Origin: Phycisphaeraceae bacterium
GTDB lineage: Bacteria > Planctomycetota > Phycisphaerae > Phycisphaerales > Phycisphaeraceae
Length of the DNA: 64,000 bases
Assembly (NCBI GenBank): GCA_002686995.1
Contig: NYZC01000403.1
Span: forward strand, 20,109 to 84,108
Direction of reading: 5' to 3'
The notes below the pieces were generated by a model, which ran no database searches, was not told where the DNA came from, and was given only the letters and a program-made list of their open reading frames with translations. The position numbers were made by a program, and so were the translations under genes. Below, piece after piece: positions 24,433 through 44,754 of the stretch. The stretch's first letter is position 1. Every line of letters starts with the position of its first letter.

Positions 24433-25848
24433 CTAGACGCGGCTCGTCACCTTCGGAACCGGTTCGAGCCGGGGCGGAGGGTGGGGGTTCCAGGTCGACG
24501 GCCGGGGCGGGTATCGATGCCCCTGCGCCTGGAACAGTCGACGGCCGAGCGTCACCGCGCCCGGCACGATCGGGTCGGACTTATGGCCGCGACCGGCCAG
24601 CATCTGCCGAAGGGCCCCGTCGAAGATGTCGAGCAGCTTCTTCGTGAGGTTCGGGTTCTCCGCCGCGATGTTCCGGGTCTCCCCGGGATCGTCCAGCAGG
24701 TCGAAGAGCACGACGGGCGGGCTCGAGCGGTAGTCGCACTCGCGCGACACGATGAGCTTGTACTCGCTCGTGCGCAGGGCCCAGGCCGCCTGCCAGGTCG
24801 ACTCGCAGGCGATCAGCTTGTGGTTCCAGTGCGACATCGTCGTCTCGCCGCGAGCCAGGGGCAGCATCGACCGCCCCTCGATCAGGTCCTCGCGCAACGA
24901 TTCCCCGACGGCTTCGACCACGGTCGCGGCGAGATCCTGGTGCTGCGTCAGGGCCTGGACGCGCCGCCCCCCCTTCAGCCCGGAAGGCCAGTGCAGAATC
25001 AGGGGCACGTGCAGGCTCGCGTCATGCAGGCCATGGGCGTCGAAATAGACGCCGTGCTCGCCCAGTTGCTCCCCGTGGTTGCCGTAGACGATCAGAAGCG
25101 TGTCGTCGAGCCGGCCCACCCGCTCGAGGGCGTCGCACAGGACGCCCACGGCGTCGTCCACGGCACGGACCTGGGCGTCGTACTGGGCGGCGATGAAGTC
25201 GATGTCCTCGATACGCTGCCCGGATGTGCTCGGCCAGCGCTGCAGGAGGTCGCCAAACCACTGCTTCGGCCAGTTCTCGCCCGTCGGACGGCGGTAGAAC
25301 TCGTCGAGGCTGCCGACGTTCGTCGTCGTCGGATCGGCGTCGTAGAACAGCCCCATGCGATCGTCAGCCGGCATGTACGGCGCGTGCGCGTCCGGATAAT
25401 GCATGTGCATGAAGAAAGGCGCGTCGCGCCCGGTCTCGATCCATTCGATCGCCAGATCGTTCACGTTCGCCGCCGTGGTCCGCTCACCGCGGCGGCGGGG
25501 ATTCAGGTAGTAGCGATAGCCGCGCGCGAACCAGGTCCGATGGTCGACGAGATCGTCGACCGCGACGGCGTCGATGCCGTGGTGACGCATCAGCAGGGAC
25601 AACCAGGTGATCTTCGGGTTGAGCCCGGACGACGCGTCCTGGTTCAGGATCAGGTGCGTCAGCGGGTGGGTCCCGCTGAACACCGTCGTCATCGCCGGCA
25701 TCGTCCCCGTGATCGGCGTGAAGTGGCGCTCGAACAGGACGCCGCCGGCCGCCAGGGCGTCGAGTCGCGGTGACGTGGAACGCGGGTAGCCGTAGCAGGA
25801 AAGGTGATCGGCGCGGACCGCGTCGAGCGCGATCATCACGACGTTCAT
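24433..25848 (-). CDS. Sulfatase-like alkaline-phosphatase-superfamily hydrolase/transferase (Thr in the nucleophile position)
   Basis: NVVMIALDAVRADHLSCYGYP...TSPRLDALAAGGVLF is a sulfatase-fold N-terminus. The C/S-x-P-x-R motif is replaced by T-M-P-A-M. No signal peptide or TM helix is visible. Confidence 0.8.
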   Translation of the reverse strand: MNVVMIALDAVRADHLSCYGYPRSTSPRLDALAAGGVLFERHFTPITGTMPAMTTVFSGTHPLTHLILNQDASSGLNPKITWLSLLMRHHGIDAVAVDDLVDHRTWFARGYRYYLNPRRRGERTTAANVNDLAIEWIETGRDAPFFMHMHYPDAHAPYMPADDRMGLFYDADPTTTNVGSLDEFYRRPTGENWPKQWFGDLLQRWPSTSGQRIEDIDFIAAQYDAQVRAVDDAVGVLCDALERVGRLDDTLLIVYGNHGEQLGEHGVYFDAHGLHDASLHVPLILHWPSGLKGGRRVQALTQHQDLAATVVEAVGESLREDLIEGRSMLPLARGETTMSHWNHKLIACESTWQAAWALRTSEYKLIVSRECDYRSSPPVVLFDLLDDPGETRNIAAENPNLTKKLLDIFDGALRQMLAGRGHKSDPIVPGAVTLGRRLFQAQGHRYPPRPSTWNPHPPPRLEPVPKVTSRV

Positions 25849-25885
25849 GCAGCGTCTCCTGGCGGGAAGGCCGCGGATTATAGCA

Positions 25886-25920
25886 CAGTCCGCGCGGTTC
25901 CTGTGGAGCCGCGCGGACTG
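25886..25920 (-). terminator. Strong hairpin downstream of the RTX gene (possible U-tract-less terminator or stabiliser)
   Basis: Perfect 12-bp stem CAGTCCGCGCGG / CCGCGCGGACTG with an 11-nt loop, 46 nt after the RTX stop. No U-tract follows on the minus strand. Confidence 0.35.
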
Positions 25921-25965
25921 GTGGGTGCACAGGTTGTCGGCCGCAGGTCGGCCGTTCGATCCGGA

Positions 25966-28900
25966 TCAGGCGATGAGACCGAGGTTCGCGATGAAGCCCT
26001 CGATCGAGCTCACGCCACCCGGGTCGGCGATGACGTCGTCCTCGCTGAAGACCATCATGTCGCCCGTAGGCGAGTTCGTGCCGCCGTCGATGAAGTCGGA
26101 GCGCCGGCCGCCGTCGATCAGGTCGTCGCCGCCGAGACCGAAGATCGAGTCGGAAGCGTTTCCGCCGCGAAGCGCGTCGTTCAGGTTCGTGCCGACGATG
26201 GCCTCGAAGTTCCGGACGCTTTCGATCAGGAAGATGCCGGAAGGCGTGCTTCTCGCCATCTTCGCCGCGAGGTCGACGTAGACGCCGGTCGACGTCAGCA
26301 GGCTGAAGTCGATCGAGTCGCCCCTGCCGCCGCCGCCGGAGATCTTCGTGTTGGTCGTCGTCGGCCCGATGTCGACGATCTGGATGATGTCGTCGCCACC
26401 GCCACCGTCGATCTGGTTGCCGTCCGAGCCTTCGAAGTCGACCATGATCAGGTCGTTGCCCGAGCCGCCCTTGACGCGGTTCTTGTCGCCGTCGATCTCG
26501 ACGTCGATGTCGTCGTTGCCGGAACCGCCGTCGACGATGTTGTTGTCGCCTTCGATGTCGGCGTCGATGTCGTCATCGCCGGAGCCGCCGGCGATGCGAG
26601 ACCTGTCGATGTCGGTGTTGACGTTGATGTCGTCGTCACCACGGCCGCCGTCGACCCGGATGCGCTCGCCGTCACCGACGTTGATCACGTCATCGCCCCG
26701 GTCGCCCTTGGCGATGCTGCGATCGCCCTCAATCGTGAGGACGTCGTTGCCGTCCTTTCCGTTGAGGTTGTCGCGACCGCCGTTACCGTCGACGACGTTG
26801 TCCTGGCTGTCGCCCGTGAACCGGTCGTCACGCGGCGTCAGGATGAAGTCCGTGACACCGCTCACCTCCACCCTCGTACCGTCGGAGAGCGTGAGGCGTC
26901 CGGGTCGGTTCGGGTTCTTGCTCAGCGAGATGACCACGCCCCGGCTGGGACGTCTCGGATCCGCAGGATCGCCCGAGAGGTCCATCGTGCCGCCCGGAAT
27001 GTCGAGCGTGTCTCTGCCGGGACTCGAGTTCACCGTGAGGCCGGTGCCGGCGAGGATGTCGTCGAAAGGCGATCCCGTGACGCCGCCGACAGGACCGTTG
27101 AAGTCGAGCGTGCTGCCGCCCGACACCGGGCCGGGGCCAACGGTGTCGCCATCGAAGGTCACGCCGGACACGGAGTTCGAGAAGTCGACGAGGTTGTTGC
27201 CGCCGCTGTCGTTGATGACGTTGGCGTCCGTCCCGCCCGGCTCGATGATGTGCGTGTCGTCACCGAGGCCGGTGTTGATCGTGTCGCTGCCCGCCGAAGA
27301 CCGGATCGTGTTGTTGCCTTCGCCGGCGCCGATCAGGTTGTTGCCGGACGTGCCGGTGATGTTGTCGTCACCGCTGCCGGTGAAGAGGTTCTCAATCGAA
27401 TTCGGCGCCAGCGTGTTGTTGCCGATCTCGGCACTGTCGAACAGCGTGCCTGCCGCCAGGTCCGCCGTAATGGGCAGGGTGGTGAAGGCGGCGTCGATGT
27501 CGTCCGTGCCGGTGCCCCCGTCGATGTTGTCATCGCCGAGACCGGCCAGGAAGGTGTCGTTGCCGCCACCGCCGTCGAGGTCATCGTTGCCGTCGCCGCC
27601 GATGATGTCGTCGTTGCCGTCGCCGCCGTCGATCACGTCGTCTCCGCCGGCACCGTCGATGTTGTCATTACCGGGGCTGCCGGTCAGCGTGTCATTGCCG
27701 GGCCCGCCGGTGAGCGTGAGCCCGCCGCCTGCACCGGAACCGTCGATGTTGTCATCGCCGGAGCCGCCGATGATGTTCTGAATGTTGGAATGGGTGTAGT
27801 TGAAGGTGGTGCCCGTGGCGGTCGTCGCCGTCACGGTGACCGGATCCGTCTGGTTCGACATGTCGAGCGTGTTGCTGCCGCCGTCGCCGTCGAGCGTGTC
27901 GTTGCCGGTATTGCTGACGAAGAACGTGTTGTCGTTGGCATCGCCGGCAAGATTGTCGTCGCCGCTGCCGCCGGTCAGGTCCTCGAAGTTCGCCAGCTGG
28001 TCGACGCCGGGGCCGGCGCCGAGGCCGCTGCCGATGCCGGGCGCGATGCCGTCGAGATCGACGGTCACGCCGGTGGCATTGGACTCGTAGCTGGCAAGGT
28101 CGGTGCCGCTGCGACCGTCCATCGTGTCGCCGGCGACGTCATGGCCGCCGCCGTCGATCTTGTTGTCGCCGCCGTCACCGCTGAGGATGTCGTCCTGCGG
28201 GCTGCCGAGGATGTCCTCGATGTCCACGATCGCGATCGTCATGCCCGGCACCACCGTGCCCGGCCGGTTCGTGTTGGCCGTGCCCTCCCCCGCGTCCAGG
28301 TCGACCTGGACGCCGGTCGTGAAGCCGCTGTAGTCCACCTGGTCGGCGTCGCTGTCGCCGCCGACGATGCGCTCGATGTTAGTCAGGCCGTTGGCGTCAT
28401 CGGCATGGGTCACGCTGTTGCCGAGGCCGTCCGTCGCCGTGACGCTGTTGATACCGAAGTTGATCGCGGACGTCGCCGCGAAGTTCGTGAAGTCGTCGGC
28501 CGTCAGGCCCAGCAGGTCGAGATCGGCCTGCACGAGGTCCGTCGGAGCGAACAGGCCGAAGCTCATCGTGTCCTCGTCTCCAGCCTGGAACGACTCGGAG
28601 GCCTCGTCGACCACGATGTCGTTGCCGAAGCCGTCGGAGAAGAAGAAGTCGTCTTCGTCGGTGCCGCCCGTCAGGCTGTCGTCGCCGCCTCCGCCGATCA
28701 GCGTGTCCCGGCCGCCGTCGCCATTGAGCGTGTCGTTGCCGTCGGCGCCGAGCAGCAGGTCGGACCCGCCGCCGCCGAGCAGGGTGTCGTTCATGGGACC
28801 GCCGACGAGCGTGTCGGCGCCGAGACCGCCGGTCAGGGTGTAGGGGCCGCCCGTGCCGCCGTACAGAATGTCGGGGAACGCACTGCCGACCACGCCCTCC

Positions 28901-31900
28901 ACGTTCGCGTAGGTGTCGGTGCCGCCGGTGCCGTCCTCGGACGAACCGGCGTCCACGCGGACGCGGACGCCCGTGGGCGCTCCGGCGAAGCTGACCTGGT
29001 CGATGCCGTCACCACCGTCGATCTCGTCGTCACCGTCGTTGCCGCCGCCGCCGCCGAAGCCGCCGCCGGCAACCGTGTCGTTGGCGGCCTCGCCGAGCAG
29101 CGTGTCGTCGCCGAGCCCGCCGTTGATCGACTGGGCCTGGCCGTCGCCGCGAAGCGAGTCGCTGCCGTCACCGCCGATGATGTCACGAATGTTGTCGATG
29201 CCGCCGGATCGCACCAGGTCCACCGTCGTCACACCGATGCCAAGATCGCTGTCGAAGCTGGCGTCGCCGGTGGTCAGGTCGACCTGAACGTCGAACGCAG
29301 TCGTCGAGGGGAAGATGCCGGACGTGATCACGTCGGAGAAGTCGATCGTGTTGATGCCGCCGGCACCGTCGATCGATCCCGTGCCGCGTGCCAGCGGGTT
29401 GAGGATGCCCGACCCGTTGGGATTGTTCCGATGGAGCCACTCGAACACGTCGTTGGCCGTGCCGCCGGTGATGTTCTCGAGGTCGTCGCCGCCATGCGTG
29501 ATGGAGTCGCCGGCCGAGGTCGCGGTGACGCTCGCCATGGTGACCGTGATGGCGCTGTTGATCGCGCTCGGGTTGAACGCTCCGCCGAAATCGGGCGGAA
29601 GCGTCGGCCCGGCGAAGCCGTTGAAGGTCAGGGCGTCCTCGCCTTCGTCCTCGGCCTCTACGATCGTGTTGGCCGCGCCGAAGCCGCCATCGCTGGTCGA
29701 GTCGGTCACGACGTACAGGTCGTCGTCGCCGCCGCCGTTCAGCGTGTCGTTGCCGGCACCGGCCACGAGCGTGTCGTCGCCCTGGCCGCCTTCGAGCGTG
29801 TCACCGTTGGCGCCGACGCCGCGGGCGATCAGCAGATCGTTGCCCTGGTCACCGAAGAGGTTGTCCAGACCGCTGCCGCCGGTGTCGCCGGCGTCGAGCA
29901 CGTCGTCGTCATCGCCGCCGCGAAGGGTGTCGTCGTCATCGTCCGAGCCGCCGTGCAGGCTGTCATCGCCCTGCAGACCCTGGATCGAGTCGTCGCCGAC
30001 GAGACCGCGCAGGATGTTGGCGAACTCGTCACCGGTGATCACGTCGTTGTTCGGCGTGCCGGTTACGTTCTCGATGTTGTGCGGCACGTTGGCCGTCACG
30101 GTCGTGCGGTTGACAGGTGCAATGGTTCCGTCGTGCTGCGTCTGCAGCGTCGGGGTGGTGCTGAGGTCAGCGACCAGCGTGTCGAAGCCGGGACCCCCGC
30201 CCTGGAGGACGCGCGAACTGTCCAGCGTGTCGTCACCGCCGCCGGGCTGCTCGTCGACCGTGTCGATTTCGCCACCCGTCGTGATCGAGTCTGACTGGTA
30301 GGTGTCGTCGCCCGCGCCGCCGACCAGCAGGTCGTCGTCGGTGGCCAGCACGGCGATGCCGTTGCCGTTGAGCGTGTCGTTGCCGTCGAGACCCGTGAGG
30401 GTGTCGTCGCCGGCATTGCCGAGGAGGCTGTCGTCCGCCGTCGAGCCGGTGATGTCATCCGGACCGGGCGTGCCCACGACACCTTCGATGTTCGCGATGC
30501 TGTCGACGCCCTGATGCACGCCGGTGCCGAGGTTGATCACCTGGCCGGTGCTGCCATCGGGATCGACGTTGCGATAGTCGATGCTGTCGACCGTTCCGGC
30601 GGGGCTGCTGCCGCCGTCGAACGAGCCGAGACCGGCGGGCGCCTCGGTGCCGAACGGGATGGGCATGTCGGCGCCGTTGTCCGTGAAGCGGAAGAAGTCC
30701 GTGCCGCTGCCGGTCAGGATCGACTCGATGAAGTCGCCGGCCGCATTAAGGAATTCCGAGCCGTCGGTGACGTTGATGGACGAGAGCGTCACGACCAGGT
30801 CTTCGCTCAGTGCCGACATGTCGAGCACGTCAGCGGTGCCTTCGCCCGTCAACTCGGTGATGACGTCGCCGCCGCCAGCCGAGAAGTTGTTCTGCACGTA
30901 CTCGTACGTGTCGTTACCGGTGTTGCCGATCAGTGTGTCGTCGCCGTCGCGACCGGTGATCGTGTCATCGCCGGCGTTGCCGGTCAGCACGTTGGCGCCG
31001 TTGTCGCCGATGAGGATGTCGGCATCCGCACCGCCGATGGCGTTCTCCATGGTTCTGGTGGTCACGGCGCCCGTGATGGTGCCACCCGTGTCGGCCTGGC
31101 CGGAGCCGGTGAATGCAGCCGCAAAATCTTCGCCGGTGAAATCGACGGTCACGACCGTGCCGACGGCCTGGCCTGCGTAGTTCAGCGTGTCGCCGGCGCC
31201 GGTGTCGGCGCCGCCGGTGATGTCGAGCGGCGAGCTCTGGGTCGGCGTGAACGTATCGTCGCCGGCATTGCCGTCGACCGTGATGCCCGCGTTCGCCGCG
31301 ACGATCTCGATCGGAACCAGGCCGCCGACCGCGACGCGCGTCGTGCCCGGCGCGCCGTCGCTGATGCCGATGGCGTCGTCGCCACCCGTCGCCTCGACGA
31401 CCACGGCGTCGGTGCCGTCACCGGTGTCGAGCGTCAGGGTGGTGACGTTGAACTGCGTGATCTCGAAGTCGACTTCCTCCTCGAAGCCGTTGCCGGGAAC
31501 GCTGTCGGCATCGGTGTCGACATCCAGCGTGGAGGTGCCGGCGCTCGGGTCGGCCGGGGTAAAGACCGCGCTGTCGTCCGAGGACGTCAGGTTCACGACG
31601 ATGTCATCGGCATCGTTGTTGTCGGTATCGCCGCCGTCCAGGAAGAACTCCGTGACATCCGAGGTCGCGTCACCCACGCCGTTGACGGTGACCGTCTCGT
31701 CCGAATCTTCCTGGCCGTTGATCTCGACCTCTTCGATGCCCGTGAGGGCGATCGGACCGCCCACGACGCCCGTGATCTGGTCGGTCGTGAGATCCACGGT
31801 CACGCTGTCGTCCGGATCGAGATTGACCGTGATTCGATCGCTGGCGGTGGGCGGACCGCCGTCGAAGGTGATGCCACCGGTGAAGATCGCGAGATTGGTC

Positions 31901-34900
31901 CCGTCGATGGTGAGCGTGTCGTCCTCGCCGCCTGTCGCGCCGCCACCGAAGTCAAGGTTGTTGATCCCAACGAGCGTCACCTCGTCGCCGTCGAGCGTCA
32001 CGGTCGGGTCAGGTGCGGCGTTCGCGTCGATCGTCCAGTCGTCGTTGTCCGTGTCGTCGCCGACGAACTGCACCTGGTCGGTGCCGCCGTTGCCGTTGAT
32101 GGTCACGTCGTCGTCGAGCTGCGTGCTGTCGACGAGGACCACGTCGTCGCCGGCCGAGCCGTTGAGGGTGTCCTCACCGCCGCCGCCGTTGACGACGATG
32201 CCGGGCGCCAGCGCGAGCGTGTCGTCGCCGGTCGAGCCGATGACCGTTTCCATCACGCCGGTGACGGCGAGCGTGTCGCCGCCGTTGATGTTCTGAACCT
32301 GCCCGGCGGTCTGGCCGACGTCGAAGGTCACGCCCCCGCCGAAGAACTCGAAGCTCAGCGAGTCGTCGCCGCTCGAGTCGTTGATCACGTCGGCCGATCC
32401 CGGCTCCTCGAAGTACTGGTCGTTGCCGTCGCCGCCGTCCATCGAGTCGTCGCCGGCCAGACCCTGAAGCTGGTCGTTGCCGTCGCCGCCGATGAGGTCG
32501 TTGTCCGCGGCACTCCCCAACAGCACGTCGTCCAGCGTGGTGCCCGTGACGTTCTCGACGAGACCGTCGCCGGAAATGCTGTTGGTGACGTCGTTGCCGT
32601 CCGTGACGGTGCCGGCGTCGAGATCGACGGTCACGCCGGCCGTCGGCGTCCCGATACCGGTGTTGGTGGCCAGCGAGAAGTCGAGTGCGTCGTCCGTACC
32701 GCCGCCGCCGTTGACCGTGTTGACACCCCAGGCATCGCCGATGAACCGGAAGGTGTCGTCACCGGCGCTGCCGTTCAGCACGTTCGATTCGTTGTTTGCC
32801 GTGAAGTCGTCGTCGCCGTCGCCGCCGAACAGCTGCTGAATATTGGCGATGCCGCCCGCGGCGCCGCCGTTGACGTTGGTGGCCGAACCGTCGTTCAGGT
32901 TGACCGTCACGTCTGTCGTGAAGTTCGACGTCAGACCGTAGTCGCCGCCGTCGTAGCGCAGCTGGTTCGTGCCGGTGCCGCCGTCAATCGTGCCGTTGAG
33001 GAAGTCGCCGTCTTCGTCGAAGGCGATGATGTCGTTGAAGCTGAAGCCGACCTGCGTGTCGAGAATGATGTTCTCGACGTTGTCGTCGATGTGCTGCACG
33101 ATCGTCGTGGCGTTGGCGCCCGGCGTGCCGGGATCGCTGTCGACGGTGATCGAGCCGAGGATGACCTCGACCGCCTGGCCGATCGTGGACAAGTCGATCG
33201 TGTCGTTGCCCTCGCCCGTGCCTTCGTTGACGTCGTCGGTCGTCGCGGCGTCGGTGATAACGAAGGTGTCGTCGCCCGTGCCGCCGGTCAGGGCGTCGGC
33301 GCCCGCGAGGCCGCTCAGGGTGTCGTTGCCGCCCTGGCCGATGAGCGCGTTGACGCCACCGTCGCCGGTGAGCGTGTCGGCAAAGGCGCTGCCGGTCGCA
33401 TTTTCGAAGAGAATGATGCCGCCCGTGCCGGTGGCCGTCGGCGTCGGGACGACCGAGAGATCCACGGCGACCGCGGAGGCATAGTTGGTGTAGTTGATGG
33501 TATCGCTGCCGGCGTTGCCGGTGATGATTCCAGCGCCGCCGCCGAACACCGCCGCGCCGCTCAGGCTGACCAGGTCGTCGCCGCTGCCCAATCGCATCAC
33601 GAGGAACCCGTCGCCGGTGTGCGTGATCGTGTGAGTGGCGTCAGCGATCGTGAAGCTTGCCGTGATGTCGACCGTCAGGTTGTTGGTCGTCGCGGATAGA
33701 TCCACGACGTCGCCACCGGATCCGGAGATCACGTCGTTGCCGAGCGCCACGCCGGCCGGGTAGAGCAGTGTGTCGGTGCCGGCGCCACCGTTCAGCACGT
33801 CGTCGCCCTCGTTGCCCTGGATCGTGTCGTTGCCCACGCCGCCGGTCAGCGTGTCGGCCTGCGTGCCGCCCTCGAGCACCTCGAAGTTGAGGATCGACGA
33901 GACGATCGCCGTCAGGTCGGCCTTGGCCGCCGCGCCGCCGAGCGTCGCCGAGACGCCCTGCGTCGTGTAGTTGAAGGTCAGCGTATCGGACGTGACATGC
34001 CCGCCGCCGTCGATGACCGTGCCGGCGCCGCCGATCACCACGTTGTCCGCGACGTTGAACTGATCGTCGTCCGCGGTGCCGATGATGACCTCGACGTCGT
34101 TCGCCGCATGGGTGACCGTGTTGCCGCCCTGGGTCACCGTCACGGACGCGAAGTTGGCGGTGATGCCGCCGGCCGTCACGTTCGAGAAGTCCATCGTGTC
34201 GACGTCCGCGCCGACGGCCTCGGACACCGTGTCGGTGCCCCAGGCGTCGAGGAACACGAAGTTGTCGCTGCCGGCGCCGCCGTCCAGCGAGTCGTTGCCG
34301 GTTCCGCCGTCGATCGTGTCGTTGCCGCCCCCGCCAGCGAGCGTCTCGTCGGCCGCGCTGCCGGTCAGGCTGTCTGCACCGTCGCCGCCCGTCACGTTGA
34401 CGAACTCACCGCCGCCGAACGTCGAAAGCGTGATTCCCGCGGCGCTGATCGTGCCGGCGCCCAGGTCCACCGTGGCCGCGGCCGCGACACCGGCGAACGT
34501 CATGATGTTCGCCTGGCCGTTCGCCGCGTCGAGGATGCCGACGCTGTTGACGCCCTGGATGACGCCGCCGCCGCCTTCAGTGATTTCACCGCCGTTCGTA
34601 CCGGCGGCGTAGGTGATCACCACGCCGATGTCGTCCACTTCGAGCGTGTCGGCGCCGCCGCTGCCGATGATGCTGTCGGTGCCTTCGGCCGCGGCAATGT
34701 CATAGATGTCGGCACCGCCGCCGCCGGTGATCGTGTCGTTGCCCCCACCGGGAATGAACGTCTCGGCCGCGGAGGTGCCGACGAAGGTGTCGGCGGCGGC
34801 CGTGCCGATCGCGATGGTGAAGCCGCTGACCGACGTCGGGAAGTTCGGCGTCACGACGCCGGTCGCGAAGTTGACCGTCTCGGGGCCGGCCTCGCCGGAG

Positions 34901-36501: not shown

Positions 36502-36946
36502 GGTGGAGTACCCCTAGGAGCACTTGGACTGGGGTCGCGTCGACCCGAGACCTGCATTGCTCTGCGCTGCTCTGCGACTTGGTGTGCGCGAATACAGAAT
36601 ACGAAAGTTCCAAAATGGCCGGATATTCCGTCGCAGGACGGCTTATCGGGACCACACAAGTTCAGACTTTAGATTACTGAGCCAATTTCTCAACTTCAAA
36701 GCGCGGCGCTTCGACGCATCGTCAACGACCGATATTGCGTCGCCGCGTGGTGCTGGCGGTCTCATCGTGCCGCATCGCACCGACAGGATTTCCAGTAACG
36801 ACTCCGATAGCGTCGTTGTTGTCGGTGATGTTCAGGGGGAGCGTCCTTGCGAAGATCTCTGGTTCTATTGTCCCGAAACCGGGACGAGTCCTGATACGTC
36901 CCGATCTGCCCTGGCTCGCGCCAGCTCCGTCGAACCGGCCGGGAGT

Positions 36947-39094
36947 CTAACCGAGCGGCATCGTCCGGTCCAGCCAGTCGTCTCGCCGAACCAGCGAGCG
37001 CCGGATGTCGCCGGCCCGCGTCCGAATCCGCCGACGCGCCCATCCGATCAGAGCCCGCGAGACGATTCGCGGCGATGAAACACGGCCGGACTCGGCCTTG
37101 GCGCCGGCAGCATACATGCGGCGCAAACACTTTACAACCCAGGATGCCTCCCATGTGTAAAAAAGGTCCTCCAAACTTATAAAAAGCTGACAGGAATTCG
37201 ACGGCCCGTTCCTGGCGGCACGACCGATAAGTCGCTCGGCGTCACGCACCGCCGAGGGTTCGTGCCCGACGACGATGACCTGCACCGATGCGTCGATCGC
37301 GTCTCGCTCATCGGCCGCCGCGCCGAGGCGCCCGCCCTGCCCGCCGACCACCGTGATCGCGCCGGGCACTGCGAGCCGATCCAGCGCCGACGCTTCGCGG
37401 TCGGGCTGCACGCCGGTCACCTGCCCGGCGTCCATCCCGCGCTCTGTCAGCAGGTCGCCGATGCTACGCACGCCGGCAGCCGAGCCCGTCACGACCAGGA
37501 CCGGCATCCCTTCCCGATAACACCTCTCGGCCTCGTCCGCGACAAGGCCGTGCATGCGCGCCGTGGCGGCGACGAGGCGCGGGGTCGCCGCGAACGTGCG
37601 GTCCCGTCTTGCCGTAAACCCCCGAAGAATAAGACCATACATCTGCGATAACTCCCGCCGACGGAGGCGGCACGACGTGGAGGACACGCCGCAAAGTACG
37701 CGGTAGAGGCGGAAGAACCGCTGGAGGCTCAGGCTTGCCAGCGTCCTGCGCTCCGCCGTGATCTCGAGCCCCTCCTTCGCCTCGATCGCCTGCTCGACGC
37801 CGAACTGACGTCGACGGTCGGGCAGATAGGTCTGGCCCGTGGACGGGTCGATCATGATCACGCGATCCTCGATGACGTCGTAGTCGCGTCCCCGCTCGTA
37901 GCAGATGGAGGCGGCGAGAGCCCGCTCGACCACCTCGCGGCGCCGGCGGTCGCCGTGCCAGAACGCCGTGTCGATGCCGGCCTCGTCGGGCTCGTCGATC
38001 TCGGCCAGGCGAATCCACCCCTCGTCCGTCAGCCGGACGATCCGGCGATCGGAGTGCACTATATAGTCCACGTCCGCCACCAGGTCCCCGGCCAGTCGGA
38101 CCGCCCGGCGCAGGACGTCCGGCGCGGTATGGGGCCCGGGGACGGTGGAAATGACCAGCGGGGAGATCGCATCGTCCAGCAGCGTGCCGTCGATGTCGTC
38201 CACGATCGCGGCGTGCAGGCCCGGCACGGTGATGCGCTCCGTGGCGGCCGCGGATGCCGCGACCGGGGTCATGTGCTCGATGACCGCCTCCCGCGCCGGG
38301 CCGAGACGAATCTGGTCGCGCAGCCAGTCGCCGATCAGTTGGCGCGCCGCCACGTACACCACCGGGTGGCGGTAGGCCGCAAGCTTCCGGTCCCGGGGCT
38401 GGCCCGCCTCGACGTGGGCCGCCGCAAGCCCGGCCCGGCGCAACAGCGGCGCCATCGCGCCGCCGTCCCGCGCCGCCTGGAAATCATTCGCCACCACCAC
38501 GTGCACCGATGGATGCGACCACCCGGCAAGCACGGCGGCGAGCGCGACGACCGGAGCCCGTGGCGTCGCGCCCGCCAGCGCCGCGGCCTGCCCGTGAAAA
38601 AGAGCCAGCGCCGCCGCCACCTGCGTGTCGTGAGGTCTCTGACCGATCTCTCTCGCGGCCATCTCCCGCACGCACGCCATCGCCTCGGTCAGCGACGACG
38701 GCGACACGGGTCGGCGGGCGAATGCTTCGCGCAGCCGCGCGGCGCGCTCGTCGAGCTCGGGCTCGGACAGGTCCTGATATTGCGGGCCGAGCCGGTCGAC
38801 CTGCGCGGCGAGCTGCCGGCAGCGCCGAACGCGGCCCGGAACCTGTCGCATTCGCGTCACCCATCTTCCCACCAGACCGTCGAGACCCCATGCCACCGGC
38901 GCGCGGCGACGCCGGGTCGTAAAAGACCACCACATGGCGTCGTAGCGTCCGATTGCCTGCGTCATCAGCCTGCTCCCGCCTTGCCGGTGCGTCGCCCGGG
39001 CGGCGGCCCCGGAATTGTTAATTAATGCACAGGATACAGGAACCGGGCCGCGATGCAAGTCCGGCGCGGGAAGGAGACGGAGGATTCGGGGCAT
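36947..39094 (-). CDS. SecA-like protein with degenerate ATPase motifs
   Basis: Collinear with SecA across the DEAD motor and preprotein-binding regions (LSEPELDERAARLREAF; VHVVVANDFQAARD; IVDDIDGTLLDDAISPLVIS; QFGVEQAIEAKEGLEITAERRTLASLSLQRFFRLY; PVLVVTGS). Walker A, Walker B and motif III are not conserved. An alternative start is the ATG at 38965. Confidence 0.8.
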   Translation of the reverse strand: MPRILRLLPAPDLHRGPVPVSCALINNSGAAARATHRQGGSRLMTQAIGRYDAMWWSFTTRRRRAPVAWGLDGLVGRWVTRMRQVPGRVRRCRQLAAQVDRLGPQYQDLSEPELDERAARLREAFARRPVSPSSLTEAMACVREMAAREIGQRPHDTQVAAALALFHGQAAALAGATPRAPVVALAAVLAGWSHPSVHVVVANDFQAARDGGAMAPLLRRAGLAAAHVEAGQPRDRKLAAYRHPVVYVAARQLIGDWLRDQIRLGPAREAVIEHMTPVAASAAATERITVPGLHAAIVDDIDGTLLDDAISPLVISTVPGPHTAPDVLRRAVRLAGDLVADVDYIVHSDRRIVRLTDEGWIRLAEIDEPDEAGIDTAFWHGDRRRREVVERALAASICYERGRDYDVIEDRVIMIDPSTGQTYLPDRRRQFGVEQAIEAKEGLEITAERRTLASLSLQRFFRLYRVLCGVSSTSCRLRRRELSQMYGLILRGFTARRDRTFAATPRLVAATARMHGLVADEAERCYREGMPVLVVTGSAAGVRSIGDLLTERGMDAGQVTGVQPDREASALDRLAVPGAITVVGGQGGRLGAAADERDAIDASVQVIVVGHEPSAVRDAERLIGRAARNGPSNSCQLFISLEDLFYTWEASWVVKCLRRMYAAGAKAESGRVSSPRIVSRALIGWARRRIRTRAGDIRRSLVRRDDWLDRTMPLG

Positions 39095-39153
39095 CGCAGG
39101 GCGCCCGTAGCTGAAGTCGCCGGATTTCAGCTACGGGGCCGGGGCCTCGGCCC

Positions 39154-41289
39154 TCACGCCGTATCGACCGCCTGCAGGAACCGGCGCCACCAGCGTGCGG
39201 CGAGGCTCGTCCGCCCGAACGTGAAGCGGACCTTCGCCCGCTGCCCGGGCTGAACCGCGACGTCGTCCGGCAGGCTGATGCGGACCTCGAACACGGATTC
39301 CGCCGCCTCGAAGCCCCGCGCGTCGGTGCGGAGCGAGCCGCCGCCGTAGTAGCCAAACATCCGGTGACGAAGCTGCTGCGTGCCGGAGGGGCTCACGCGC
39401 TCGACCTTTCCGTCCAGAACCTGGTCGATCCGCCCGATCGGTCGCAGCTGCACCGCCGGGGCGGCGCTCTCGCCGAACAGCAGCGAATTGTGCTTCTGGT
39501 CGATGATCGCGATCGCCACGAGCCGCTCGTTCCCGGCGTGGACGCGCCCAAGCACCTCGCCCCGCTCGAGGTACTGGCCCTGGAGCACGCTGAGCGCCGG
39601 GGCGACGAGCTGACCGGCGCCCGGGCTCGTCAGCGTCAGATCCTGAATCCTGCGGTCCACCTCCGCGAGCTGGCCTTCCAGCGACGCAAGACGGGCGAGC
39701 GCCTTGTCCTTTTCGTCATGAAAGCCCTCGCCGCCGGCGGCGTCCGCGAGCAGCTTCTCGTGGACCATCTTCGCGACGAGCCGCTCCCGCTCCAGCGCAA
39801 GGTCGCGGTTGGTCGCCTCGAGAATGACCTGGTCCGCGTCGACCGGCTGCCCGTCGTCCAGCGCCACGCGCTCGACGAAGCCGTCGACGGACATGACGAG
39901 CTCCATCCAGTCCTCCGGCTCGATCACGGCGTCGACGTACGCGTGACGCCCGACCGGAAGAAGCCCCACGACCGCGACGACGCCCGCCACGGCGCCGCAC
40001 GTCGACGCCCAGGCACGACCGCGCCGACCATGCAGCATCGGGCTCACCGCGAGGAACCGCGTCAGCTTCGCGAGTGGCACGATCACCCAGGTCAGCAGCA
40101 GGATCGTCACGAGCAGGACGCCGAGCCCGAAGAACAGGCGCGACACGAACCACGCGATCGCGACCATGATGAACGCGCGATAGGTCCAGGCCGAGACCGC
40201 ATAGGTCAGCAGCCAGGACCGCTCGGTGCGGCTGTGGGCCACGGGGCGCAGGTCGCGCAGACCGTAGAAACATCGCTGGAGGACCTGCTGGAGCTGCGCG
40301 TTGGCGTTCTTCAGCAGGTTGGGAATGTCCAGCAGGTCGGTCAGCACGTAGTAGCCGTCGAAGCGGAGCAGCGGGTTGGCGTTGAACAGCAGCGTCGCGA
40401 CGCCCGACACGAAGATGGTCCGATGGGCCAGCTCGTTCACGACGCCGGGCGCCGTGCCCGCCCAGACGAACACCGCCAGCGCGGCGACCGCGGTCTCGAC
40501 GATGATCCCCGCCAGGCCGACGAGCGCCCGCTGCAACCGGCTCTCGAGCCCCCAGCTGCTCGTCGCATCGCAATACGGCACCGGCGCGAACACCAGCAGC
40601 ATCACGCCCATCTCGTGCACCTGCCCGCCGAACCGCCGGCACATCAGGCCGTGCCCGAACTCGTGGACCACCTTGATGAGAACGAACAGCACGCCGAGCC
40701 AAAGCACGTTGCCCGGCCGGATCATCAGCGTGGTTTGCTCCCAGAGCGTCGACCAGCGCGGCGCCAGCCGGACCAGGGCCGCCAGCAGCAACGCGATCCA
40801 GGCCAGCAGCCCCCACCGGCTCAGCAGCGGACGGACCACCGGCAGCAGCGCATCGATCGCCGCCGCGGGGTCGAACAGCGGCACCTTGACGAACAGGAAG
40901 CTCGACCACTGCTTCCGGCGCATCACCGACCGCCGGCGCTGCATGCGCTTGAACAGCTGCGCGGCGTCGGTCGTCCCGTCGACGGTCACGAGGCTGGTCT
41001 GGTAGAGCTGGCTGATCAGGGCGAACACCTCGCCCTGCGTCGGCGCGCGGTCGCCGAACTGCTCCATGCAGAGCGTCCACGCCTGCTCGACCGTGCGCCG
41101 CCCGTCGAACAGGGCGACGAGGTGGTAGGTCACCGGATCGAGGCGATAGAACTGGTTGGCGGCCGGGTCGGAGAGGACGTAGCCGCGGCGGCGGCGGAAG
41201 TGCCGGCGCCGCACGACGACGGAGCTGCGCAGCCGCACGCGCAACGACGCGATCCGGTCCCATTCATGGCTGTGGGTCGCACGTTCCAT
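39154..41289 (-). CDS. M50 (site-2-protease family) zinc metalloprotease fused to a C-terminal HlyD-like periplasmic adaptor, with a PqqD/RRE-like N-terminal domain
   Basis: HEFGH (HExxH, nt 40651-40665) sits in a polytopic membrane core, with a later NPLLRFDGYY motif. The C-terminal about 250 aa are HlyD-like (coiled coil plus beta-barrel). N-terminal residues about 35-100 read YVLSDPAANQFYRLDPVTYHLVALFDGRRTVEQAW...EVFALISQL. Confidence 0.85.
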   Translation of the reverse strand: MERATHSHEWDRIASLRVRLRSSVVVRRRHFRRRRGYVLSDPAANQFYRLDPVTYHLVALFDGRRTVEQAWTLCMEQFGDRAPTQGEVFALISQLYQTSLVTVDGTTDAAQLFKRMQRRRSVMRRKQWSSFLFVKVPLFDPAAAIDALLPVVRPLLSRWGLLAWIALLLAALVRLAPRWSTLWEQTTLMIRPGNVLWLGVLFVLIKVVHEFGHGLMCRRFGGQVHEMGVMLLVFAPVPYCDATSSWGLESRLQRALVGLAGIIVETAVAALAVFVWAGTAPGVVNELAHRTIFVSGVATLLFNANPLLRFDGYYVLTDLLDIPNLLKNANAQLQQVLQRCFYGLRDLRPVAHSRTERSWLLTYAVSAWTYRAFIMVAIAWFVSRLFFGLGVLLVTILLLTWVIVPLAKLTRFLAVSPMLHGRRGRAWASTCGAVAGVVAVVGLLPVGRHAYVDAVIEPEDWMELVMSVDGFVERVALDDGQPVDADQVILEATNRDLALERERLVAKMVHEKLLADAAGGEGFHDEKDKALARLASLEGQLAEVDRRIQDLTLTSPGAGQLVAPALSVLQGQYLERGEVLGRVHAGNERLVAIAIIDQKHNSLLFGESAAPAVQLRPIGRIDQVLDGKVERVSPSGTQQLRHRMFGYYGGGSLRTDARGFEAAESVFEVRISLPDDVAVQPGQRAKVRFTFGRTSLAARWWRRFLQAVDTA

Positions 41290-41295
41290 CCGCAG

Positions 41296-43182
41296 CTACC
41301 ACCAGAGGGCCAGGCGCAGGAAGTCGACGAGCTTGTGGGTCATGATCCAGATGACGCGGCGCGACGCGACGTCGATCTTCGCCACGCCCTCGAAGCCCGG
41401 GCGCATCCAGTCCTCCTCGCGCTCCAGCTCGCAGTAGACCGGGAAGAAGGTTCCGCCCTCGTGAGCGACGCCCACGGGCACCACGCGCGTCACCGTGAAG
41501 TTCACGGTGACCGACGGGTTGCCTCGGGCGGCGAGTGCGCCCGTGCCGCCGAGACGCACCTGGTCGATATCGCGCTCGTCGACCCGGATCATCGCCCGCA
41601 GCAGCGGACGGCCGTCCTCGCTGCCGTGCAGCGGCGCGACCTCGAACAGCGTCTGGCCCAGCTCGACCCGCACGCCCTTGCGCTCCTGCCAGTCGCCCGT
41701 CACGACCACGCCGTCCTCGACGGCCACGATGTGCGCGTCGGCGATCTGCCGGGCGTAGAGATCGCGCTCGACCTCGTACACGCGCATCATCGCCTTGTAA
41801 CGCTCGGCGTCGTCGGGCGATCCGCCCAGGGAGCGCCGGTGATCGATGATCGCCACGGCCAGCTGGCTCTCGGCGCCGTCCCGCATCAGCTCCAGCGGCC
41901 GCGCATCCATGCGCACCAGCGGATCGCCGGCCTTCACCGGGTCGCCGTTGCGGGCGAACACCTCCTCGATGTGCCCGGTGTAAGGCGACGCGTAGACCCG
42001 CTTCTCGCGCGCCTCGAAGACGAACGGCGCCTCGACTCGGTAGTTCCATTTCACGAAGCACGACGCGATCAGCAGCACGCTCACGGTGAGCGCGACCAGC
42101 TTCAAGCCGACGTGCTCGGGACCGATGACGCGCCCCGCGAGCGTGCGCAGGTCCTGCCAGAGCTGGACCGCGGCGGGGCGGTCTCCGCGATGCCGGTCCG
42201 CCAGCGCGGGCGCGACCAGGTCGGCGATCACCTGGAACTGCGTGACGTCCGAGCCTTCGAACGGCCGGCTGCGGGGGCGCTCCGCGGTCAGCACCCCCCC
42301 GATCTCGTCGCCGTGACGAAGCGGCACGGACACGACGCCCTCCTGCTCGGTCGCCAGCTCGTGATGACAACGGCTGACCACCTGCTGCAGCCACTGGTCT
42401 TCGCCCTGGAAGTGATCGGCCGGCGCCGCCACGGCCCGGCCCTGGTCCATGCACTCCTCCATCGCCGACGCGATGGCCTCGCTCAGCTCCTGGCGCCGAT
42501 CGACGTTGTCCGTGTCGCTCATCGCCACGAGCCGGATCGAGCTGCCGCGCGCCCACCCGATCGCGACGCGCGACGCGTTCAGCTCGACGGACAGGGCATT
42601 GCACACCGCCATGCACGACTCGTGAAACCGGCCCGCCTGCTGCGCGGCGGTGAGCACGCTGAGCGCGCGGCGGGCGCCGGCGTTCTCGCGCAGCTGGCGC
42701 CGAAGACCCCGGGAGGAAAGGTGCAGCTTGTAGAGGCGGGCCGCCCACTGCAGGTGCGCGAGGAAGGGCTGAATCCGCTCCTGGTCCTGGTCAGGGGCCA
42801 GGACGACCGCGATGCCGTCGGTCGCGGTTTCGGACTCGAGCGGCGTGCAGATCGCGTGATAGACGCTGTTGCCCATCGCGATGCGGTAGACGCTGAGCTG
42901 CCCGGCCTTCTCGCACCGCTGCACGCAGTCGCGCAGGATCTCCACGCGGTCGGGCTCGACCTGCACGTGCCGACCGGGCGCCATGGGATAGACGGTGACG
43001 AGGCGCGACGGCTGGTCCTCGCGAAGCACGAACACGGCGCCGGAGACGCCGCCGACCAGCTTCGCCATCAGTTCGATGAGCAGCGTGAGAAACGGCAGGT
43101 CCTGGCCGGCCGCCGCCTCGACCTGGGCCGCAAGCTGCTGAAGCTGATCGTTGGTCACCTTGGTTGCCGTCGCCGGAGGCAT
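41296..43182 (-). CDS. Tandem-GAF-domain protein fused to an HlyD-family membrane-fusion (periplasmic adaptor) domain
   Basis: Two GAF-like cytoplasmic modules, a single TM helix (LKLVALTVSVLLIASCFV), then HlyD-type lipoyl and beta-barrel segments (YASPYTGHIEEVFARNGDPVKAGDPLVRMD). The stop lies 6 nt before the next gene's start. The start is set at the ATG at 43182; the track ORF extends to 43272, into a repeat. Confidence 0.8.
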   Translation of the reverse strand: MPPATATKVTNDQLQQLAAQVEAAAGQDLPFLTLLIELMAKLVGGVSGAVFVLREDQPSRLVTVYPMAPGRHVQVEPDRVEILRDCVQRCEKAGQLSVYRIAMGNSVYHAICTPLESETATDGIAVVLAPDQDQERIQPFLAHLQWAARLYKLHLSSRGLRRQLRENAGARRALSVLTAAQQAGRFHESCMAVCNALSVELNASRVAIGWARGSSIRLVAMSDTDNVDRRQELSEAIASAMEECMDQGRAVAAPADHFQGEDQWLQQVVSRCHHELATEQEGVVSVPLRHGDEIGGVLTAERPRSRPFEGSDVTQFQVIADLVAPALADRHRGDRPAAVQLWQDLRTLAGRVIGPEHVGLKLVALTVSVLLIASCFVKWNYRVEAPFVFEAREKRVYASPYTGHIEEVFARNGDPVKAGDPLVRMDARPLELMRDGAESQLAVAIIDHRRSLGGSPDDAERYKAMMRVYEVERDLYARQIADAHIVAVEDGVVVTGDWQERKGVRVELGQTLFEVAPLHGSEDGRPLLRAMIRVDERDIDQVRLGGTGALAARGNPSVTVNFTVTRVVPVGVAHEGGTFFPVYCELEREEDWMRPGFEGVAKIDVASRRVIWIMTHKLVDFLRLALWW

Positions 43183-43262
43183 GAATCGACAAGAATAACA
43201 TGCGGGGCCGGGGGCCGGGTATCGGGTTCCGGGGCGCGGCGTTGCGATGCCGCCGTCATAGC

Positions 43263-43316
43263 GCAGCCGCACGTTCGACCCGTGGGCTGACGCTGGCTGA
43301 CGCCCACGGTACGCAG
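43263..43316. repeat. REP-like family 2 copy (GGCTGACGCC / CCCRCGGGT units)
   Basis: GCAGCCGCACGTTCGACCCGTGGGCTGACGCTGGCTGACGCCCACGGTACGCAGCG is nearly identical to the reverse complement of 51665-51716. Confidence 0.75.
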
Positions 43317-43431
43317 CGTCTCGGGGTCCGAGGTCCCGCCCGGAGCCGGGGGATTGGTGGTTCCCGATCCGTTATCCGATATTGGTTGTTTGCGCCGTCC
43401 TTCCGGAACCCGAACCCCGGAACCCGAACCC

Positions 43432-44754
43432 ATGGCCGACGCCAACGAGTCCCCGGCACGCGGGCGGGCGGTCCGGATCGTCCGCACGCTCCAGGAGCAG
43501 GGCCACGTCGCCTATCTCGCCGGCGGGTGCGTGCGCGATCGCCTCCTGGGCCTCGATCCGAAGGACTACGACGTGGCGACCGACGCCACGCCCGAGCGGG
43601 TTCGGCAGCTGTTTCCGCGCACGCGGTTCGTCGGCGAGGCCTTCGGCGTCGTGCTCGTCTTCGAGCAGGGTCACCCGTTCGAGGTCGCGACGTTCCGCAG
43701 CGAGTGGGGCTACGAGGACGGCCGCCGGCCCGACCACGTCCGGTTCTCGGACGCCGACCAGGATGCGCAGCGCCGCGACTTCACGGTCAACGGCCTGTTC
43801 GAGGATCCGATCGCCGAGCGGATCATCGATCACGTCGGCGGGCGGGACGACCTCGCAGCGCGGGTGATCCGGGCGATCGGCGAGCCCGGTCAGCGCTTCG
43901 GCGAGGACTATCTGCGGCTGCTCCGGGCCGTGCGTTTCGCCGCCCAGCTCGACTTCGAGATCGAGCCGGACACCGCCGGCGCAATCGCGCGGCACGCGCC
44001 GCAGCTCGAGCGCATCAGTCGCGAGCGGATCGGCATGGAGATGCAGGCGATGCTGAGCGGCCCGCGCCCGGCCCGGGCGGCGACGCTGCTCCAGTCGCTC
44101 GGACTCGACGCGCCCGCCCTGAAGGAGCCGGCGCTGACGGCCGACCTGCCGACCCTGAGCCGACTGGGTCCGTCGCCGGATCTCGTTGCGGCGCTGGGCG
44201 CCTGGGCGCTGGATCGCCACCTGCTTCCCGGACTTCCGCCGGGCGCCGCGGCCGGAGACCTTGCGGGCCCGCTCGATCGGTTCGCGGACGCCGCCGGGAC
44301 GCTGGTCCGCCGGTGGCGCCGGGCCCTGTGCCTGACCAACCAGCAGCGCGATGCCCTGCGCCACTGCCTCGCCACGCTTCCCACGCTGCTCGCCTGGCCC
44401 GCGCTGCGCGTCGCGCATCGCAAGCGGCTGATGGCGCGCCCCCAGTGGCCGGACTGCATCCGCGTGTTCGCCTGCCTCGAGATCGAGGGTCTGGATGCCT
44501 TGCGCCGCGCGATCGACGACGAAGGGACACGCCTCGAGGCGGAAGGCATCGCTCCCGCCCCCCTCCTCACCGGCGACGACCTGATTGTTACGGGACGCAA
44601 GCCCGGCCCCCGGTTCAGCCGATTACTTGATCTGGTTTACGACGCACAACTCGAGGGAACGGTCCGCACGCGGGACGAGGCCCTCGAATGGCTGGATCGT
44701 GAGGCGAAACCGGGAGAAGGTCCCGCCCCGCCGTGGCCGCGCGGGCTCAGGTAA
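43432..44754 (+). CDS. cca: CCA-adding tRNA nucleotidyltransferase / poly(A) polymerase family
   Basis: YLAGGCVRDRLLGLDPKDYDVATDATPERV...FGVVLV...EVATFR...RRDFTVNGLF, a class II nucleotidyltransferase head. The start is placed at MADANE. Confidence 0.85.
   Translation: MADANESPARGRAVRIVRTLQEQGHVAYLAGGCVRDRLLGLDPKDYDVATDATPERVRQLFPRTRFVGEAFGVVLVFEQGHPFEVATFRSEWGYEDGRRPDHVRFSDADQDAQRRDFTVNGLFEDPIAERIIDHVGGRDDLAARVIRAIGEPGQRFGEDYLRLLRAVRFAAQLDFEIEPDTAGAIARHAPQLERISRERIGMEMQAMLSGPRPARAATLLQSLGLDAPALKEPALTADLPTLSRLGPSPDLVAALGAWALDRHLLPGLPPGAAAGDLAGPLDRFADAAGTLVRRWRRALCLTNQQRDALRHCLATLPTLLAWPALRVAHRKRLMARPQWPDCIRVFACLEIEGLDALRRAIDDEGTRLEAEGIAPAPLLTGDDLIVTGRKPGPRFSRLLDLVYDAQLEGTVRTRDEALEWLDREAKPGEGPAPPWPRGLR

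Follow-up and report, generated by a model that had tools for sequence, protein, structure and literature searches.

A widespread SecA-like, M50-protease and adaptor gene module beside LEPR-XLL giant proteins: a candidate export or processing machine with an ATPase-dead variant in Phycisphaeraceae

This study concerns four consecutive, tightly spaced minus-strand genes in a 64-kb stretch of a Phycisphaeraceae genome (contig NYZC01000403.1; the whole stretch is referred to as the window). Gene 1 encodes a GAF region joined to a periplasmic adaptor, gene 2 joins a PqqD-like domain, of the kind that serves as recognition element (RRE) for ribosomally synthesized and post-translationally modified peptides (RiPPs), to an M50 intramembrane metalloprotease and a second adaptor, gene 3 encodes a wingless SecA-like protein, and gene 4 encodes a giant RTX protein with an N-terminal LEPR-XLL motif. 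Patterns in sequence and gene neighborhood suggest, with moderate confidence on our part, that genes 1 to 3 encode a pared-down form, particular to this lineage, of an envelope-spanning export or processing machine that is widespread, and that its cargo is the adjacent giant, marked by a basic stretch and the LEPR-XLL motif. A dedicated export or maturation apparatus for the giant had been proposed in a first-pass annotation of the same DNA; the association with LEPR-XLL giants held from both search directions used here, and the mechanism set out below is one that we infer. Predatory, symbiotic and marine bacteria are turning out ever more often to encode giant proteins, thousands to tens of thousands of residues long, and for the exit of such proteins from the cell a module beside LEPR giants in at least five phyla offers candidates, open to testing, for the machine as well as for its signal. 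What appears to be new is the two-way association of module and LEPR-XLL proteins, the presence of the RRE domain throughout the family, and the subclade of pseudo-ATPases described below; no link between LEPR-XLL and the module was found in the literature.

In the forward direction, from module to LEPR gene, 16 of 86 non-redundant module loci had a large open reading frame (ORF) starting with a basic stretch and the pattern ExLEPRxLLSAD, where a rough estimate of the chance expectation for that pattern was about 0.05 matches in the 1,362 long ORFs scanned. Distances of these ORFs to the module ran from 97 to 3,208 nt and were at most 520 nt for 10 of them, even though the flanks reach 8–10 kb, and most were on the same strand, directly after the SecA-like gene or the gene for a small adaptor that accompanies many modules; NF012209, the 24-residue LEPR-XLL domain, was matched by 12 of 15 of their N-termini. 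In the reverse direction, metagenomes were searched with a degenerate DNA pattern for ExLEPRxLLSAD, and the 120 stretches considered are the first found rather than a random sample. Of these 120, 116 proved to be true starts of long ORFs, the longest exceeding 4,600 aa, with 107 distinct N-termini; upstream sequence of 3 kb or more was available for 48 distinct LEPR genes among those listed, and 15 of these (31%) had SecA-like, M50-adaptor or GAF-adaptor genes directly upstream. If a genome has about one module, genome sizes suggest that chance would put it within a few kb of a given gene in well under 1% of cases. Unsupervised clustering of the ORFs upstream of the listed LEPR genes recovered the small adaptor at 19 loci, the SecA-like protein at 14, the M50-adaptor at 13, a SapC family at 8 and the GAF-adaptor at 7; two groups of antisense-ORF artefacts tied with SapC at 8, and a TolC type came further down with 5 loci.

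Two smaller sets of loci show the same arrangement. Four alphaproteobacterial plasmids or chromids, from Methylosinus sp. C49, Pseudosulfitobacter sp. DSM 107133, Pontibrevibacter nitratireducens and Mesorhizobium ciceri R30, all carry a giant gene of 8,800–12,900 codons immediately upstream of the module; RefSeq names two of these giants "LEPR-XLL domain-containing protein" and the other two have the motif at their N-terminus. The closest relatives of the window, loci L211, L212 and L214, keep the four-gene unit in the order GAF-adaptor, M50-adaptor, SecA-like gene, LEPR giant, with homologous LEPR N-termini, and their genomic contexts are unrelated where flanks are available: the giants of L211 and L212 are also RTX-rich, and the genes flanking these two units differ from those in the window.

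What the neighboring giants share is the N-terminus and not the repeats. In gene 4, NF012209 matches residues 37–57 with 25.1 bits when the whole protein is searched and 31.3 bits when the N-terminus is searched (cutoff 17), the preceding stretch is strongly basic (Table 1), and the start MSKRRQK is common to gene 4 and its L211 homologue. The remainder is a very acidic RTX protein (D+E 17.5%, K+R 2.3%) with 19 stretches matching HemolysinCabind (PF00353; E 1.7e-76, 252 bits) and 61 GxGxD motifs along the full length, reaching the C-terminal region, and a hydrophobicity scan found no Sec-type hydrophobic signal in it. Many LEPR giants are not RTX proteins, their RefSeq names including LamG-like and Ig-like. 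Judging from these comparisons, RTX is incidental and the conserved link is the N-terminal LEPR-XLL tag; the first-pass annotation had asked whether a giant RTX or LEPRxLL protein is the usual neighbor, and it is the LEPR-XLL giant, whatever its repeats, that recurs immediately beside the module.

Several further genes recur in these neighborhoods. A SapC family (PF07277) lies beside LEPR-XLL genes or modules at L096, L098, L139, L144, L165, L170, L190, L197, L076, L083 and L217, and a second TolC/OEP type does so at L036, L051, L091, L121, L130, L131 and L167. A DUF3467 protein of about 100 aa, which may be a further accessory component or chaperone, is encoded between the LEPR giant and the GAF-adaptor gene on three alphaproteobacterial plasmids (L216 12624–12944, L219 12743–13024, L220 11673–11978). 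Two LEPR-XLL genes stand in tandem on one contig at L135, L142 and L172, so that genomes can carry several LEPR cargos per module. Independently, two giant symbiosis proteins of Chlorochromatium aggregatum with N-terminal LEPRxLL were reported to "lack known signals for transport" and to be flanked by SapC and TolC homologues, and the giants share a co-expression cluster with a secA gained by horizontal transfer (Cag_1676), a connection that the authors do not draw (bioRxiv 10.64898/2026.03.19.712371).

The first-pass annotation did not recognize the combination of genes as a described system, but the module had been reported by Kamneva, Poudel and Ward in 2015 (PLoS One, PMC4452313), who described "secondary SecA_DEAD domain proteins" without the wing/scaffold domain, co-encoded with Peptidase_M50-HlyD, GAF-HlyD and stand-alone HlyD/biotin-lipoyl proteins and sometimes with an outer-membrane channel protein (OEP). 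In that in silico study the module has no ABC transporter, SecA_DEAD is suggested as the ATPase, a secretion-related role is suggested, and function and substrate are left "completely unknown"; a PqqD/RRE domain, a cargo and a link to LEPR-XLL are not reported. Its S2 table also lists SapC, and one Chlorobi species, not named in the text, is listed with a secondary SecA_DEAD protein; that this is Cag_1676 is only a lead. By domain content, the window trio is a member of this module in a reduced, ATPase-dead variant. It shares the three proteins (a wingless SecA_DEAD with PPXD, an M50 with HlyD, and a GAF with HlyD), the phyla and the lack of an ABC transporter, and differs in having neither the stand-alone adaptor nor an OEP and in a SecA_DEAD protein that is catalytically dead where the published one was proposed as the ATPase.

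The module is both frequent and ordered. Relatives of the M50-adaptor comprise at least 1,301 protein clusters and at least 590 loci in species-representative genomes, and module loci span Planctomycetota, Verrucomicrobiota, Nitrospira, Desulfobacterota and Proteobacteria. With few exceptions the order in the 86 non-redundant loci is OEP (where present), small adaptor, GAF-adaptor, M50-adaptor, SecA-like, and the GAF-adaptor, M50-adaptor, SecA-like order is found in nearly every fetched locus with enough flank, so the trio is indeed conserved as a unit. The small adaptor is present in most other loci and missing in L211 and L212 as in the window; an OEP is present in many related loci. In RefSeq the SecA-like component goes under "prepilin peptidase" or "DEAD/DEAH box helicase" (L216 17102–19018, L217 17954–19978, L219 17019–19004, L220 17066–19027), whereas the M50 fusion is listed as "PqqD family protein", "PqqD family peptide modification chaperone" or "site-2 protease family protein"; under these names the system escapes routine surveys. 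Several loci from different phyla also have an aminotransferase gene (DegT/class I-II or class III) next to the module (L003 3372–4664, L005 2947–4185, L216 21348–22406).

Both HlyD-type adaptors that had been noted in the window, one GAF-fused and one RRE/M50-fused, were recovered by Pfam and NCBIfam profile matches. Gene 1 matches GAF at residues 217–357 and HlyD_3/HlyD_D23 at residues 422–626 (Pfam), and scores 862 bits against the hidden Markov model (HMM) of its family. Its strongly hydrophobic segment (Table 1) is taken as a transmembrane helix, which would leave the GAF region of about 385 residues on the cytoplasmic side and the adaptor part on the periplasmic side; a weaker hydrophobic segment at residues 59–77 (Kyte-Doolittle 1.63) was set aside. 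Gene 2 carries PqqD, Peptidase_M50 and HlyD signatures and scores 1,075 bits against its family HMM. Its AlphaFold2 model (pLDDT 91.5) consists of a strands-then-helices N-domain at residues 17–104 (strands at 17–50, then helices at 52–97), a helical membrane core at about 142–443 and a C-terminal adaptor. The isolated N-domain matches Pfam PqqD (PF05402) with 25.7 bits (cutoff 23.4), and PqqD was matched in 10 of 14 diverse members of the M50-adaptor family, with a best E of 1e-9. Both M50 motifs, HExxH and NxxPxxxxDG, are invariant in 76 homologues, and the protease is presumably active. The adaptor part has an alpha-hairpin at residues 495–549 in the model, and the top Foldseek matches of the model are MacA, MexA, AcrA and EmrA with E about 1e-13 (3e-13 for MacA/MexA/AcrA); on the model, the C-terminus is a genuine membrane fusion protein (MFP) with an alpha-hairpin.

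The first two parts of gene 2 resemble the leader peptidases of RiPP systems, in which an N-terminal PqqD-like domain is likewise followed by a HExxH intramembrane protease. Gene 2 scores 174 bits against daptide_HExxH (NF041824; cutoff 300), aligning over positions 18–367 of 379, and 30 bits against YydH/LiaK (NF058609; cutoff 225), in both cases under the equivalog cutoff. It differs from these enzymes in its C-terminal periplasmic adaptor, in a locus that holds no precursor peptide or tailoring enzymes within the window, and in a likely "leader" that sits on a protein of thousands of residues. A further set of relatives, the plasmid-encoded proteins H15–H30 from Azospirillum, E. coli and Citrobacter, are shorter, match the M50 region only (query residues about 41–382 or 130–382) and are annotated as HlyD family adaptors; by sequence they seem to represent a related family of M50-adaptors that lacks the complete architecture and occurs on enterobacterial plasmids.

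Gene 3 matches Pfam SecA_DEAD (186 bits) and SecA_PP_bind, with no SecA_SW match, and its scores against NCBIfam PRK09200, TIGR00963 and TIGR03714 (247, 216 and 203 bits) lie far below the respective cutoffs (862, 800 and 930). Its alignment to Bacillus subtilis SecA covers residues 19–607 only, so that, on the published SecA domain map, it is without the wing domain, the two-helix finger and the C-terminal tail; the architecture is NBD1-PPXD-NBD2 plus one long C-terminal helix, ending within the scaffold helix, and the nearest homologues are module proteins of 650–700 aa. The SecA fold is predicted to be retained (AlphaFold2 pTM 0.76), the best Foldseek match being substrate-engaged SecA (6itc_A, TMq 0.78). 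The protein thus resembles SecA and SecA2 in its predicted fold, differs from both in the missing parts, the low family scores and, in the window, the lost ATPase motifs, and is not linked to SecY2 or Asp genes. A wing/scaffold-less SecA tied to giant proteins has been described by West-Roberts et al. 2023 (bioRxiv 10.1101/2023.11.21.568195), who found wing-less SecA_DEAD and PPXD embedded in giant proteins of Omnitrophota and actinobacteria and proposed an export role; there the SecA domains lie within the giant, whereas in the window the SecA-like protein is separate, in an operon with adaptors and protease.

The first-pass annotation called this SecA homologue a dead ATPase, which is right for the window copy (GEGKT replaced by ATPRA, DEAD by DDID, GRGTD by GRLGA) and wrong for the system as a whole. 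The three motifs are kept in all other database homologues except one fragment-borne protein, in 81 of 87 SecA-like ORFs of the surveyed loci, the remaining six being the window, its two duplicate contigs and three ORFs cut at contig ends, and in all four plasmid copies, which score 725–815 bits on the SecA-like HMM; loss of ATPase function throughout the family is therefore rejected. The SecA-like proteins of L214 and L211 are also degenerate, each differently (LKEAAAGTL, LPGGAGRTL), and those of L212 and L215 have intact motifs; M50-adaptor identity to the window is 56% for L214, 54% for L211, 50% for L212 and 44% for L215. On these sequences the dead ATPase is limited to one small subclade within Phycisphaeraceae (window, L211, L214), which offers a natural experiment on what powers translocation. 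Outside that subclade, a SecA-like protein on a 3.2-kb Logan contig (P0028), unrelated to it by score, has a degenerate Walker A, DLADPGARRQS, and may represent a second independent ATPase loss.

If the module is an export machine, the cytoplasmic PqqD-like RRE of the M50-adaptor would capture the LEPR-XLL leader of the unfolded giant, and the SecA-like protein would clamp the chain and, in most lineages, feed it through the PPXD; canonical work with SecY is not possible for a SecA-like protein without the two-helix finger and wing. The M50 membrane domain might then cleave the leader, provide the passage through the inner membrane, or both, and the heterologous adaptors would form a periplasmic duct to an outer-membrane channel of OEP type. 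In the window subclade, where the SecA-like protein is without ATP hydrolysis, it would act as clamp or scaffold only. The dead motor, together with the missing small adaptor (window, L211, L212) and the missing OEP (window), means that energy would have to come from elsewhere and that the outer-membrane channel would be encoded elsewhere. Extracellular Ca2+-driven folding of RTX repeats is known as a ratchet in classical RTX secretion and is one candidate source of energy; proton-motive force and an unlinked ATPase are others. Leader binding by the RRE, cleavage by the M50 protease, route and energy source are all inferred only. A bolder and tentative reading, which could well be right but which we would not yet call probable, is that LEPR-XLL is the N-terminal targeting leader of an unrecognized secretion class, in which the RRE recognizes the leader, the M50-adaptor processes that leader, conducts the chain or does both, a motor derived from SecA stands in for the ABC transporter and the adaptors dock a TolC-like channel, with the window lineage running on a dead motor. 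If true, this would be the first secretion route to join a SecA-type motor, a RiPP-type recognition domain and the adaptors of tripartite pumps.

Several observations weigh against an export machine with the giant as cargo. LEPR adjacency is found in only about 20–35% of loci, and elsewhere the cargo would have to be encoded apart; the reverse search, as said, did not sample at random. The window copy, with its dead motor and with neither small adaptor nor OEP, might export nothing, and RTX repeats that run up to the C-terminus of the giant would also fit classical C-terminal export through an ABC system elsewhere. A profile search of PDB sequences with the RRE domain found only the PqqD structures 3g2b and 5sxy, weakly (E 0.1 and 1.4), and the best 50 Foldseek matches to the full gene 2 model, in which the RRE domain was not isolated, are all periplasmic adaptors. 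The SecA-like HMM also gives canonical SecA 500–640 bits, so that specificity rests on co-occurrence with the M50-adaptor. Finally, no later functional or experimental work on any module member was found in the literature.

The alternative that survives best, unlikely as we consider it, is that the giant is exported C-terminus first by a canonical type I secretion system (T1SS; ABC/HlyD/TolC) encoded elsewhere and that the module is a regulated device for N-terminal processing or for retention and release. By analogy with LapG/LapD acting on LapA-type RTX adhesins, the GAF sensor could control the cutting of the N-terminal LEPR region by the M50 protease. The locus does resemble the T1SSs of RTX proteins (HlyB-HlyD-TolC, or LapBCE for giant adhesins) in its alpha-hairpin adaptors, in the TolC-type partner of many related loci, in a very large acidic cargo with Ca2+-binding repeats and no Sec signal, and in an adaptor with a cytoplasmic N-terminal extension; such a device would account for RTX motifs that reach the C-terminal end of the giant, for a sensor domain alongside a protease with intact catalytic motifs, for a conserved cargo feature that is N-terminal, and for a window with a dead SecA-like motor and no OEP. 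The predicted topology, however, puts RRE, GAF region and SecA-like protein on the cytoplasmic side, where they would meet the N-terminus of the giant before export, not after. The module brings its own adaptors, two or three different ones instead of one, and often its own OEP, it adds an RRE-M50 protease and a SecA-derived protein, and its cargo tag is N-terminal where a T1SS uses a C-terminal signal. ABC exporters hardly ever occur in the neighborhood of LEPR genes or modules (a crude screen found two ABC-like ORFs in 1.66 Mb of module loci and one in 0.82 Mb of LEPR loci, three in 2.5 Mb in all, the loci examined numbering about 200), and many LEPR giants are not RTX proteins. Of the T1SS components, the window holds MFPs with an alpha-hairpin and neither an ABC transporter nor a TolC-family protein.

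A less probable alternative is that the module is a non-functional relic in the window lineage, its order kept by inertia and the giant handled otherwise or not secreted at all. All three ATPase motifs are degenerate, the small adaptor and the OEP are missing from the 64 kb, and the SecA-like protein has changed faster than its partners across the dead subclade, where it is the least conserved module protein (42–44% identity vs 52–56%), whereas it ranks first in conservation in the intact pair L212/L215 (57% vs 48–51%). Against decay, the window, L211 and L214 all keep intact, full-length SecA-like ORFs of 663–681 aa at only 42–44% identity, and 700 neutral codons would stay open in a genome of about 70% GC with a chance, estimated from base composition, of about 2e-6. 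Neither the catalytic residues of the M50 domain nor the RRE has degenerated, the SecA fold is still predicted, and L211 keeps the four-gene unit between different flanks. Full-length dead copies with a retained predicted fold point to a pseudo-ATPase kept under relaxed but persistent selection, and a decaying pseudogene copy, which the first-pass annotation had considered, is rejected. Weakest of all, and very improbable, is that the module matures or exports a small RiPP-like peptide with the giant a coincidental neighbor: the PqqD-like RRE and the matches to daptide_HExxH and YydH/LiaK fit such a role, but both scores are far under their cutoffs, the locus has no modification enzymes, LEPR adjacency is far beyond chance in both directions, and the unseen peptide substrate entertained at first was dropped, there being no supporting evidence and no credible small ORF in the spacer before gene 4.

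The four ORFs were confirmed at exactly the positions first assigned to them (Table 1), with gaps of 6, 59 and 445 nt between the longest ORFs. The public gene call starts gene 1 at M31 (window 43182), giving 628 aa, and the real start of gene 3 is probably M44 at window 38965 (672 aa), as homologues and the public gene call indicate, in which case the second gap becomes 188 nt. GC at third codon positions is 0.83–0.93 in all four ORFs, as in real genes of this 66–70% GC genome. The spacer before gene 4, in which the giant gene probably has a promoter of its own, contains the only sigma-70-like match of the region (36693–36666), in a promoter/terminator scan whose count was no higher than chance or shuffled sequence.

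Table 1. Features of the module locus, in window coordinates (residue numbers refer to the longest ORFs)
Feature	Position	Strand	Remarks
Gene 1, GAF + periplasmic adaptor (MFP/HlyD-type)	41296..43272	-	658 aa, longest ORF
Gene 1, strongly hydrophobic segment, aa 388-406	42055..42111	-	Kyte-Doolittle 2.24
Gene 2, RRE (PqqD-like) + M50 intramembrane metalloprotease + periplasmic adaptor fusion	39154..41289	-	711 aa
Gene 2, PqqD/RRE-like domain, predicted cytoplasmic, about aa 16-105	40975..41244	-	Pfam and model
Gene 2, HEFGH zinc-binding motif of M50, aa 209-213	40651..40665	-	H209, E210, H213 invariant in 76 homologues
Gene 2, second M50 motif NxxPxxxxDG (NANPLLRFDG), aa 303-312	40354..40383	-	N303, P306, L307, D311 invariant in 76 homologues
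Gene 2, predicted periplasmic adaptor part, aa ~448-711	39157..39948	-	AlphaFold2 and Foldseek
Gene 3, wingless SecA-like protein	36947..39094	-	715 aa, longest ORF
Gene 3, degenerate Walker A, AGATPRAP for TGEGKTL	38552..38575	-	
Gene 3, degenerate Walker B/DEAD box, VDDID for VDEAD	38189..38203	-	
Gene 3, degenerate motif VI/arginine-finger region, GGRLGAA for AGRGTDI	37316..37336	-	
AT-richer spacer before the giant gene, 445 nt	36502..36946	-	
Gene 4, acidic RTX protein, presumed cargo	25966..36501	-	3,511 aa
Gene 4, strongly basic N-terminal 30 residues, MSKRRQKRHQKHEVNRRQRSRRRARTRSEF	36412..36501	-	ahead of the LEPR motif
Gene 4, LEPR-XLL motif, FAVEALEPRVLLDA, aa 37-50	36352..36393	-	conserved in L211, L212 and L214 cargo

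On one side the unit is flanked by genes for a sulfatase, a glycosyltransferase, a thioredoxin, an M16 peptidase and RibBA, and on the opposite side, divergently, by genes for a CCA/polyA polymerase, VTT, YggS, PriA and MutS. The rest of the window holds housekeeping, Mrp antiporter, nonribosomal peptide synthetase (NRPS), TRAP genes and similar. As had been noted at first, no ABC exporter, no TolC/OEP and no further adaptor was found among the credible ORFs of the 64 kb, which include one ABC-importer permease, and the small-adaptor HMM had no match anywhere in the window. An Rfam scan of 25000–44500 found no RNA family, and PADLOC defense models matched none of the three module proteins. The window sequence has near-identical counterparts among marine metagenome contigs, one of which carries a Tara Oceans sample annotation, and the deposited protein comes from a Phycisphaeraceae MAG; the only close copies, L001 and L002, differ by 1 nt in 18 kb, and beyond them the SecA-like gene is saturated in its relatives, at about 40% identity.

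Two minor observations concern other parts of the window. The GC content falls to 0.57 at 2001–4000, compared with about 0.65–0.70 elsewhere, in a region with overlapping ORFs at 1280–3061 (-) and 2033–3094 (+). The NRPS gene at 11813–19441 (+) encodes 2,542 aa with a cytidine/deoxycytidylate-deaminase-like domain at residues 985–1091 and a methyltransferase at residues 524–629, set among adenylation, carrier, condensation and thioesterase domains, which is an unusual insertion.

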